Virus record (IMG/VR): IMGVR_UViG_2740892270_000009
Reading direction: 5' to 3' (one strand)
Source of the DNA: a virus
Taxonomy: Duplodnaviria; Heunggongvirae; Uroviricota; Caudoviricetes
Length of the DNA stretch: 4,555 nt
The position numbers were made by a program, and so were the translations under genes. Positions 104 to 443 of the stretch are shown in pieces. Each line of letters starts with the position of its first letter. The stretch's first letter is position 1. The notes below the pieces were generated by a model that saw nothing but the letters and a program-made list of their open reading frames with translations, did no database searches and had not been told where the DNA came from.

Positions 104-443
104 CGTTAAAACATCTGCAGATAATGACGTTGACTTGGATACAGATGGATTCAGACAACTGAGGATATCGTGCCCATCCCCTTCTGCCAGCGGTGCGATT
201 ATATTGAGAAAAGCTTCTTATGAATTCGGCAAAAGTATAGGTGTATTTGATTTTGCAAACAATGCATCACCAGCGACGATGACATTTTTGATCCCAATAT
301 ATAAAGATGATGATTTTGATTCAGATACTGTTGGTTTTACATTTGCGTTCAAGATGCCAAGAGGCCAGTTTTTTGTAGATGTAAAAGAAAACGGGAATAT
401 CAGAGCTGGAGTTAATGTTAATGGCGAGTCGGGAGTGACCTAC
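104..443 (+). CDS. AT-rich open-frame fragment of unknown function, probably a 5'-truncated gene remnant; not recognisably phage baseplate or IS1
   Basis: Single open frame (frame of position 90) across all 340 visible bases, with no minus-strand ORF of 66 aa or more. By hand count it is about 40% GC against roughly mid-50s% in the phage genes. Translation is Asp-rich (DNDVDLDTDGF, YKDDDFDSDTVGF) and ends ...VNVNGESGVTY. The first in-frame ATG is at 279 with no Shine-Dalgarno, and the frame opens inside IS1, so the start appears to be missing. The 3' end runs into the mask. Confidence 0.3.

Follow-up and report, generated by a model that had tools for sequence, protein, structure and literature searches.

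The AT-rich segment at positions 104–443 of the analysed window (the whole 4,555-nucleotide stretch of phage DNA) is best explained, with good confidence in the account as a whole, as codons 35–147 of a 160-codon prophage accessory gene that was split by the insertion sequence IS1. In intact prophages, the gene occupies a 581-bp cassette at the junction between the tape-measure gene and the Mu N-like gene; the phage type is lambdoid and temperate and combines an HK97-type head with a contractile tail of the Mu type. Here, a 768-bp IS1 has entered the gene behind codon 36, duplicating 9 bp of target and cutting the gene body off from its start codon, ribosome-binding site (RBS) and signal peptide, and a second IS1 has split baseplate gene J, leaving a defective prophage. 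The fragment is thus a case of ordinary prophage decay affecting an uncharacterised but already catalogued moron family. As IS1 insertion is commonplace in Shigella, the window itself, a dead piece of a degraded prophage, carries little weight. A modest value lies in the intact family, a rare, conserved and predicted exported beta-barrel that recurs at a single position of a tail module widespread in enterobacteria, prophages of STEC, ETEC and Shigella included; the family nowhere has a functional annotation. The features of the window are listed in Table 1, with reference to two comparison loci, the IMG/VR contig L012 and the prophage of E. coli FDAARGOS_944 (L001).

Table 1 Features of the window, with their counterparts in comparison loci.
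Feature	Position	Strand	Remarks
IS1 end, last 103 bases, with the right terminal inverted repeat ending at 103	1..103	+	Copy splitting the accessory gene
9-bp target-site duplication CGTTAAAAC, right-hand copy	104..112		Also at L012:5223-5231; once in uninterrupted L001
Accessory gene, codons 35-147, pseudogene fragment	105..443	+	WP_000594909.1 family, PHROG 5586
Masked stretch	444..853	+	Counterpart L012:6340-6831
DNA-circularization protein gene (Mu N / Mup43-like), 3' part	854..1841	+	Downstream of cassette
Baseplate J/gp47 gene, 5' part, cut by second IS1	3859..4452	+	L001 CDS 11817-12899
9-bp target duplication GGGGGCGCA of second IS1, left-hand copy	4444..4452		Repeated at L012:11180-11188
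Second IS1 copy, first 103 bases seen	4453..4555	-	Inverted relative to first IS1

An accessory gene split by IS1

A megablast search of the 340 bases against 5,426 complete E. coli genomes recovered the stretch in 11 chromosomes at 97–100% identity, and all 11 matches lie inside an annotated 483-bp 'hypothetical protein' coding sequence (e.g. WP_000594909.1 in FDAARGOS_944). The neighbours of this coding sequence are a gene annotated 'phage tail tape measure protein' on one side and one annotated 'DNA circularization protein' on the other, which gives a defined position to the intact copies, whose existence the original prediction had proposed to check. Identity of the window fragment to L001:8001-8340, which falls within the CDS annotated at 7900-8382, is 100%, and the intact gene, which has a GTG start with a GGAG RBS 8 nt before it, encodes a product of 160 amino acids (MIKPFLMTVAILTSCCAQAKILTNEEIVSRFISNVKTSADND...NCKLNMKDINDD). 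Further parts of the window also correspond to L001: the segment that follows the first mask has 99.8% identity to L001:8833-10040, in the CDS 'DNA circularization protein', and the last ORF, whose L001 counterpart is annotated 'baseplate J/gp47 family protein', runs into IS1.

The interruption is visible on L012, which differs from the unmasked blocks of the window by only one mismatch. On this contig, the accessory gene is split by a complete 768-bp IS1 (L012:5232-5999) with the 9-bp direct repeat CGTTAAAAC on both sides, and the first 110 bases of the gene, with its first 34 codons, directly adjoin this IS1 on the left. The gene start was therefore displaced rather than deleted, and of the original proposal that the fragment is the 3' part of a gene whose 5' end was removed by IS1, the first half stands, including the separation by IS1, while the removal does not. 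A second, inverted IS1 (L012:10412-11179) interrupts baseplate gene J between two copies of GGGGGCGCA. In homologues without the insertions, each 9-bp sequence occurs once (GGGGGCGCA at L001:12403-12411). The window, whose first 103 bases are the exact reverse complement of its last 103 and match sequence annotated as IS1 family transposase in E. coli, is exactly the segment between the two inverted copies; it therefore holds only their inner ends, and the marks of simple insertion (768 bp, inverted repeats, 9-bp duplication) are present on L012.

Both IS1 copies are independent simple insertions in an otherwise colinear prophage. The original prediction had also considered a fragment of an unrelated locus brought here by IS1, whether by deletion, inversion or a composite transposon, and the two inverted IS1 ends that bound the window would fit such an origin. 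It is nevertheless highly improbable, as both IS1 copies are bordered by separate 9-bp direct target duplications and the same genes continue in the same order outside both copies on L012 as in uninterrupted prophages, which leaves no IS1-mediated joining of foreign DNA. Lacking a start codon, an RBS and a signal peptide, the fragment is a pseudogene, and the splitting of baseplate gene J by the second IS1, which makes the prophage defective, leads to the same conclusion. Any read-through product initiated in IS1 would remain cytoplasmic.

The junction between IS1 and the gene was found in none of the complete E. coli genomes. Its read-through peptide (ESLPVKTSADND...) is identical to the RefSeq protein WP_252861237.1, 'partial [Shigella sonnei]', and a 37-aa 5' piece of the accessory gene is also on record from S. 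sonnei; by these protein matches to both parts of the split gene, the window very probably represents the Shigella sonnei allele. Many Shigella draft contigs with the gene measure 4.2–5.3 kb, a size that assembly breaks at these IS1 copies would produce.

Other insertions were seen in related prophages. In Shigella flexneri SFBU1023 (L034:6561-7328) and E. coli ECMA0423 (L035), the accessory gene is intact and another IS1, 97% identical to the window copies over the terminal 103 bases, lies about 80 bp downstream, where it has apparently truncated the N gene at its 5' end, an independent insertion nearby. The tail sheath gene of the otherwise colinear FDAARGOS_944 prophage (L001:2307-5107) is split by the IS4-like ISEc60, a further instance of IS-driven prophage decay.

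Composition, reading frame and masked stretches

The original prediction described a stretch of about 40% GC, against the mid-50s% in adjacent phage genes, that is open in one forward frame only, and both descriptions proved accurate. GC content is 39.7% at 104–443 and 54.5% in the unmasked phage sequence of 854–4452, with a third-codon-position GC of 31.9% in the open frame, and this frame (plus strand, codons from base 105) is the only one of the six without stops, the other five containing 2–12. Its 113-codon translation (VKTSADNDVDLDTDG...GESGVTY) was reproduced exactly as first quoted. The label 'Asp-rich' fits the fragment, where Asp makes up 10.6% of the translation, as a modest excess and does not extend to distant relatives of the protein (3–7% Asp). 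Likewise, no credible start codon or RBS was found in the window downstream of the IS1 end, as had been stated; the sole upstream start for the frame is a TTG at base 90, within IS1.

Three masked stretches affect how window coordinates can be read. The masks at 444-853, 2062-2313 and 3225-3487 comprise 410, 252 and 263 positions and stand for 492, 247 and 249 bases in L012, respectively, and the window-to-L012 offsets between unmasked blocks accordingly shift from 5896 to 5978, 5973 and 5959. Because the masks alter the true length, ORFs and coordinates that cross one are unreliable, an example being the apparent ORF 90..1841 (583 codons), which arises because the translation runs across the masked Ns. 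According to L012, the first mask covers the last 13 codons of the accessory gene, its stop and an intrinsic terminator hairpin, by which the true 3' end of the gene was recovered, together with the RBS of the DNA-circularization (Mu N-like) gene and about 135 codons from the start of that gene; as this mask does not keep its true length, these features have no exact window coordinates.

The apparent ORF 90..1841 would also be the one argument for taking the fragment as the true N-terminal domain of the downstream Mu N-like protein, an idea that retains next to no probability: the ORF is a read-through of the mask, homologues show a TAA stop and a terminator with the N gene starting 46 bp beyond the accessory gene stop, and the N protein begins MD[LF]PSLPSL... 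with or without the cassette. The fragment thus belongs to a separate 160-codon ORF with no Pfam match, that for Mu N / DNA circularization protein (PF07157) included, in line with the first impression that it does not resemble the N-terminus of Mu N-type proteins. A chance open frame in a non-coding AT-rich spacer, to which the lack of a start codon in the window and the unusual composition might point, is dismissed just as firmly by intact homologues of 150–176 aa at 38 of 39 loci, by dN/dS values of 0.10–0.31 at deep divergence (well below 1) and by the retention of motifs, signal peptides and cysteine pairs along with a fold predicted confidently from the deeper alignment. Stops in all homologous copies, which the original prediction had named as the sign of a non-coding frame, are thus not what the family presents.

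The cassette and its host prophages

Comparison of occupied and empty slots delimits the inserted DNA. In the 11 E. coli genomes, the accessory gene forms part of an AT-rich cassette of 581 bp, in which its TAA stop is followed by a 9-bp GC-rich hairpin and a run of seven T (L001:8388-8410, z = -4.1), with equivalent terminators in L016, L038, L036 and L037. A 2.3-kb query across the slot matched 51 genomes, and about 40 of these carry tape-measure and N genes that are 95–97% identical to the query with 581 bp less between them; in the two cassette-free genomes that were read, 15 bp separate the tape-measure stop from the N start. Homology breaks off within the final few tape-measure codons and resumes about 12 bp ahead of the N start. 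The gene has 34–40% GC against 44–57% in its flanks in five tail-slot lineages. A strict scan for consensus sigma-70 promoters upstream of the gene, with weak or other promoter types outside its scope, returned none in L001, L016 or L038. No Rfam family scored above threshold in the cassette, and no repeats flank it.

Since some 40 close relatives do without the cassette, the gene behaves as a moron. Morons have been defined by their own promoter and terminator, deviant composition, status as extra DNA and expression from the repressed prophage (Juhala/Hendrix, restated in PMC3594210), and the present gene shows the extra DNA between adjacent genes, the deviant base composition and its own terminator. 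Among the possibilities raised by the original prediction, accessory moron cargo is accordingly the one that emerges as most likely, given a separate ORF with its own stop and terminator that is absent from those relatives.

The intact prophage of strain STEC309 illustrates the genetic background. It is lambdoid, with an integrase, an excisionase, an XRE-type repressor, an antiterminator Q and a lysis cassette, adjoins yecD, and combines a P27-type terminase and an HK97-type head with a Mu-type tail. In other lambdoid phages, late transcription modified by Q reads through terminators, and a Q-type antiterminator would similarly let late transcription pass the cassette terminator. A cluster of four tRNA genes (Ile, Lys, Thr and Gly) is located between the Q region and the lysis genes of this prophage (L044:19124-19433). 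In E. coli FDAARGOS_1077, the N gene comes almost immediately behind the major capsid gene (L006:2875-3075), the segment from the head-tail connector to the tape measure being deleted, cassette slot included.

Distribution of the protein family

PHROG 5586 is matched by the intact protein along its entire length (E = 9.7e-89, residues 1-160/160) and by all 14 aligned family members; as this PHROG is of unknown function, membership names the family without explaining what it does. The family is small. A word-indexed search of 5.8 billion proteins gave nine clusters, and an exhaustive profile search of 1.84 billion cluster representatives gave 19 matches, three of which (P0017, P0019 and P0023) were rejected as false positives, being large proteins with Cys/Ser/Thr repeats; true relatives among the 1.84 billion number about 15. 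Only one of 50,697 phage records (vB_EcoM-720R4, at 49% identity) contains a homologue, as does one plasmid record. Every named member is labelled 'hypothetical protein'; neither the full-length protein nor any of the 14 members gave a meaningful match in Pfam, NCBIfam or PADLOC, and literature searches on the accession, on phage vB_EcoM-720R4 and on the Shigella IS1/prophage context returned nothing specific.

The slot between tape-measure and N genes also holds a Yersinia relative of 74% identity and a 49% clade in E. coli and Salmonella, and it is kept by relatives at 38% and 34% identity. This conservation of position down to 34% identity could mean that the role is tied to the tail module rather than being that of free-floating cargo. 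More distant relatives of about 25% identity (L036:740-1270 and L037:2919-3413) have the GC content of their flanks and are located on plasmid-prophage-like contigs, in the company of IncFII RepA/ParC-like genes, MazEF or Gp49/HTH toxin-antitoxin pairs, ParA and a CI-like repressor. Judged at the level of sequence, these comparisons show a gene that is under purifying selection while being accessory, dispensable and horizontally mobile.

Predicted properties of the intact product

A heuristic script detected a signal peptide (basic n-region, hydrophobic h-region and small-x-small site) in all 10 members with an N-terminus, with Lys directly after the predicted cleavage site in eight of these (Ala-x-Ala|Lys type), while the window fragment itself is without the signal-peptide region. 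The intact product is predicted to be exported by a Sec-type signal peptide, whose cleavage site is conserved in the family. Lipobox-like sequences occur as LTSC in E. coli/Shigella proteins and as LISC in Yersinia, and the 49% clade and more distant members have an AxA site instead. The Yersinia enterocolitica homologue (L038:7896-8459) has an annotated start, MMLISCC..., that leaves too few residues to form a signal peptide; another ATG further upstream (MKKPIYLCL*) is offset from the frame by a single base, which points to a frameshift or a sequencing error within the signal-peptide region, and no tape-measure gene was called upstream of the homologue on this contig. The predicted mature E. 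coli protein is acidic (141 aa, 15.5 kDa, pI 4.7). All full-length members have exactly two cysteines at conserved mature positions, a CPxPSASG motif and a C-terminal CK, and the two cysteines, the Cys57-Cys150 pair, probably form a disulfide.

AlphaFold2 with the 14-sequence alignment yielded a model (pLDDT 85.1, pTM 0.78) with a helix at residues 24-41 followed by eight strands. The model from six sequences was poor (pLDDT 43), so the fold rests on the 14-sequence alignment. The predicted fold is an N-terminal helix with an eight-stranded up-and-down beta-barrel of soluble type. Foldseek searches of the PDB and BFVD gave nothing below E = 1e-3 and generic structural matches only; among these, calycin-like barrels (the lipocalin-like 4q51 and 5hal, Tp0751, avidins, FABPs and Cap15) share 8–10% identity, with Foldseek E values all >0.01, and there is no lipocalin or avidin Pfam match and no indicated ligand. 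A weak sequence-profile match to Calx-beta in the PDB (E = 0.08) was rejected because the fold searches give no support; neither a significant Calx-beta profile match nor an Ig-like sandwich fold was obtained. The MliC/PliC periplasmic lysozyme inhibitors were likewise rejected (hhalign probability 0.06%, no Pfam MliC match): their motifs SxSGxxY and YxxxTKG are missing, the SASG string lies elsewhere in the chain and several unrelated barrels score higher.

These properties bear on two further suggestions of the original prediction. An adhesin or fibre-like protein finds no support in a signal peptide with a predicted small soluble-type barrel and no Pfam or NCBIfam match, and nor does a known defence gene, as PADLOC-DB 2.0 defence profiles gave no match at E values up to 10.

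Comparison with known systems and possible function

The closest parallel in genetic organisation is gene 15 of HK97, whose product gp15 is a superinfection-exclusion moron protein (Juhala et al. 2000, Cumby et al. 2012; reviewed in PMC3594210). Both are extra, compositionally deviant single-gene cassettes with their own terminator, placed beside the tape-measure gene in a lambdoid tail operon and missing from related phages, and both products are envelope-bound (a prediction in the present case). The two differ in that they share no sequence similarity and occupy different slots (between tape measure and N in the present case and between chaperone and tape measure in HK97), and gp15 is a small inner-membrane YebO-like protein, whereas the present product is a signal-peptide-bearing predicted beta-barrel of about 140 residues. 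What further sets gp15 apart is that a promoter, lysogenic expression and an exclusion phenotype have been demonstrated for it.

Other small phage exclusion proteins, such as T5 Llp, phi80/N15 Cor and T4 Sp, carry a signal peptide or lipobox and reside in the periplasm or outer membrane, and the targets of exported phage exclusion factors include FhuA and gp5 lysozyme. None of T5 Llp, phi80/N15 Cor or T4 Sp was recovered for the present protein in sequence or fold searches.

The intact product would be exported and may act as a periplasmic or envelope binder. Taking HK97 gp15 and further tail-region morons directed to the envelope as models, we tentatively suggest that it protects the envelope of the lysogen, either through superinfection exclusion or by blocking an envelope-targeting enzyme or toxin, a role that we regard as possible and short of probable. 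It is weakened by the lack of a consensus sigma-70 promoter upstream of the gene in three lineages, by the failure of sequence and fold comparisons to match it with any characterised protein of exclusion, immunity or inhibition (PADLOC, Pfam, NCBIfam, Foldseek and hhalign for MliC/PliC) and by a lipobox that is not conserved across the family. A more specific version, to which we assign a somewhat lower probability still, is that PHROG 5586 is a periplasmic anti-phage or envelope-protection family, in which a secreted, disulfide-bonded beta-barrel encoded beside the tape-measure gene of SfV-like tail modules would intercept an incoming tail tip or tape measure, or an envelope-targeting enzyme. 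If so, its loss to IS1 in Shigella sonnei would be part of the prophage decay of that lineage.

In the main alternative, the protein could serve the lytic cycle as a late exported helper of the tail module that, for example, blocks progeny from re-adsorbing to debris or modulates lysis or the envelope at release, and would not be a conversion or exclusion gene product made in the lysogen. The location of the gene in the late tail operon, in the same orientation and with no promoter of its own detected in scans, is consistent with such a function, as are the conserved position in divergent phages to 34% identity and the expected read-through of the terminator by Q. The function is nonetheless unlikely, as the gene is missing from about 40 of 51 closely related prophages, distant members are found in maintenance or immunity regions of plasmid-like elements rather than in tail operons, and the terminator that immediately follows the gene agrees with the moron model. 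Far less likely again is an outer-membrane eight-stranded beta-barrel or surface lipoprotein acting as a virulence factor, comparable to Lom or Bor of lambda, that would alter host interaction and not phage sensitivity.

Whatever the function of the family, its slot is open to other genes. At L042:2387-2974, a HIRAN-domain gene lies between the tape-measure gene and a family member of 31% identity; the post-tape-measure slot can therefore take more than one cargo gene and may be a small hotspot of accessory genes, of interest with regard to exclusion or defence phenotypes.
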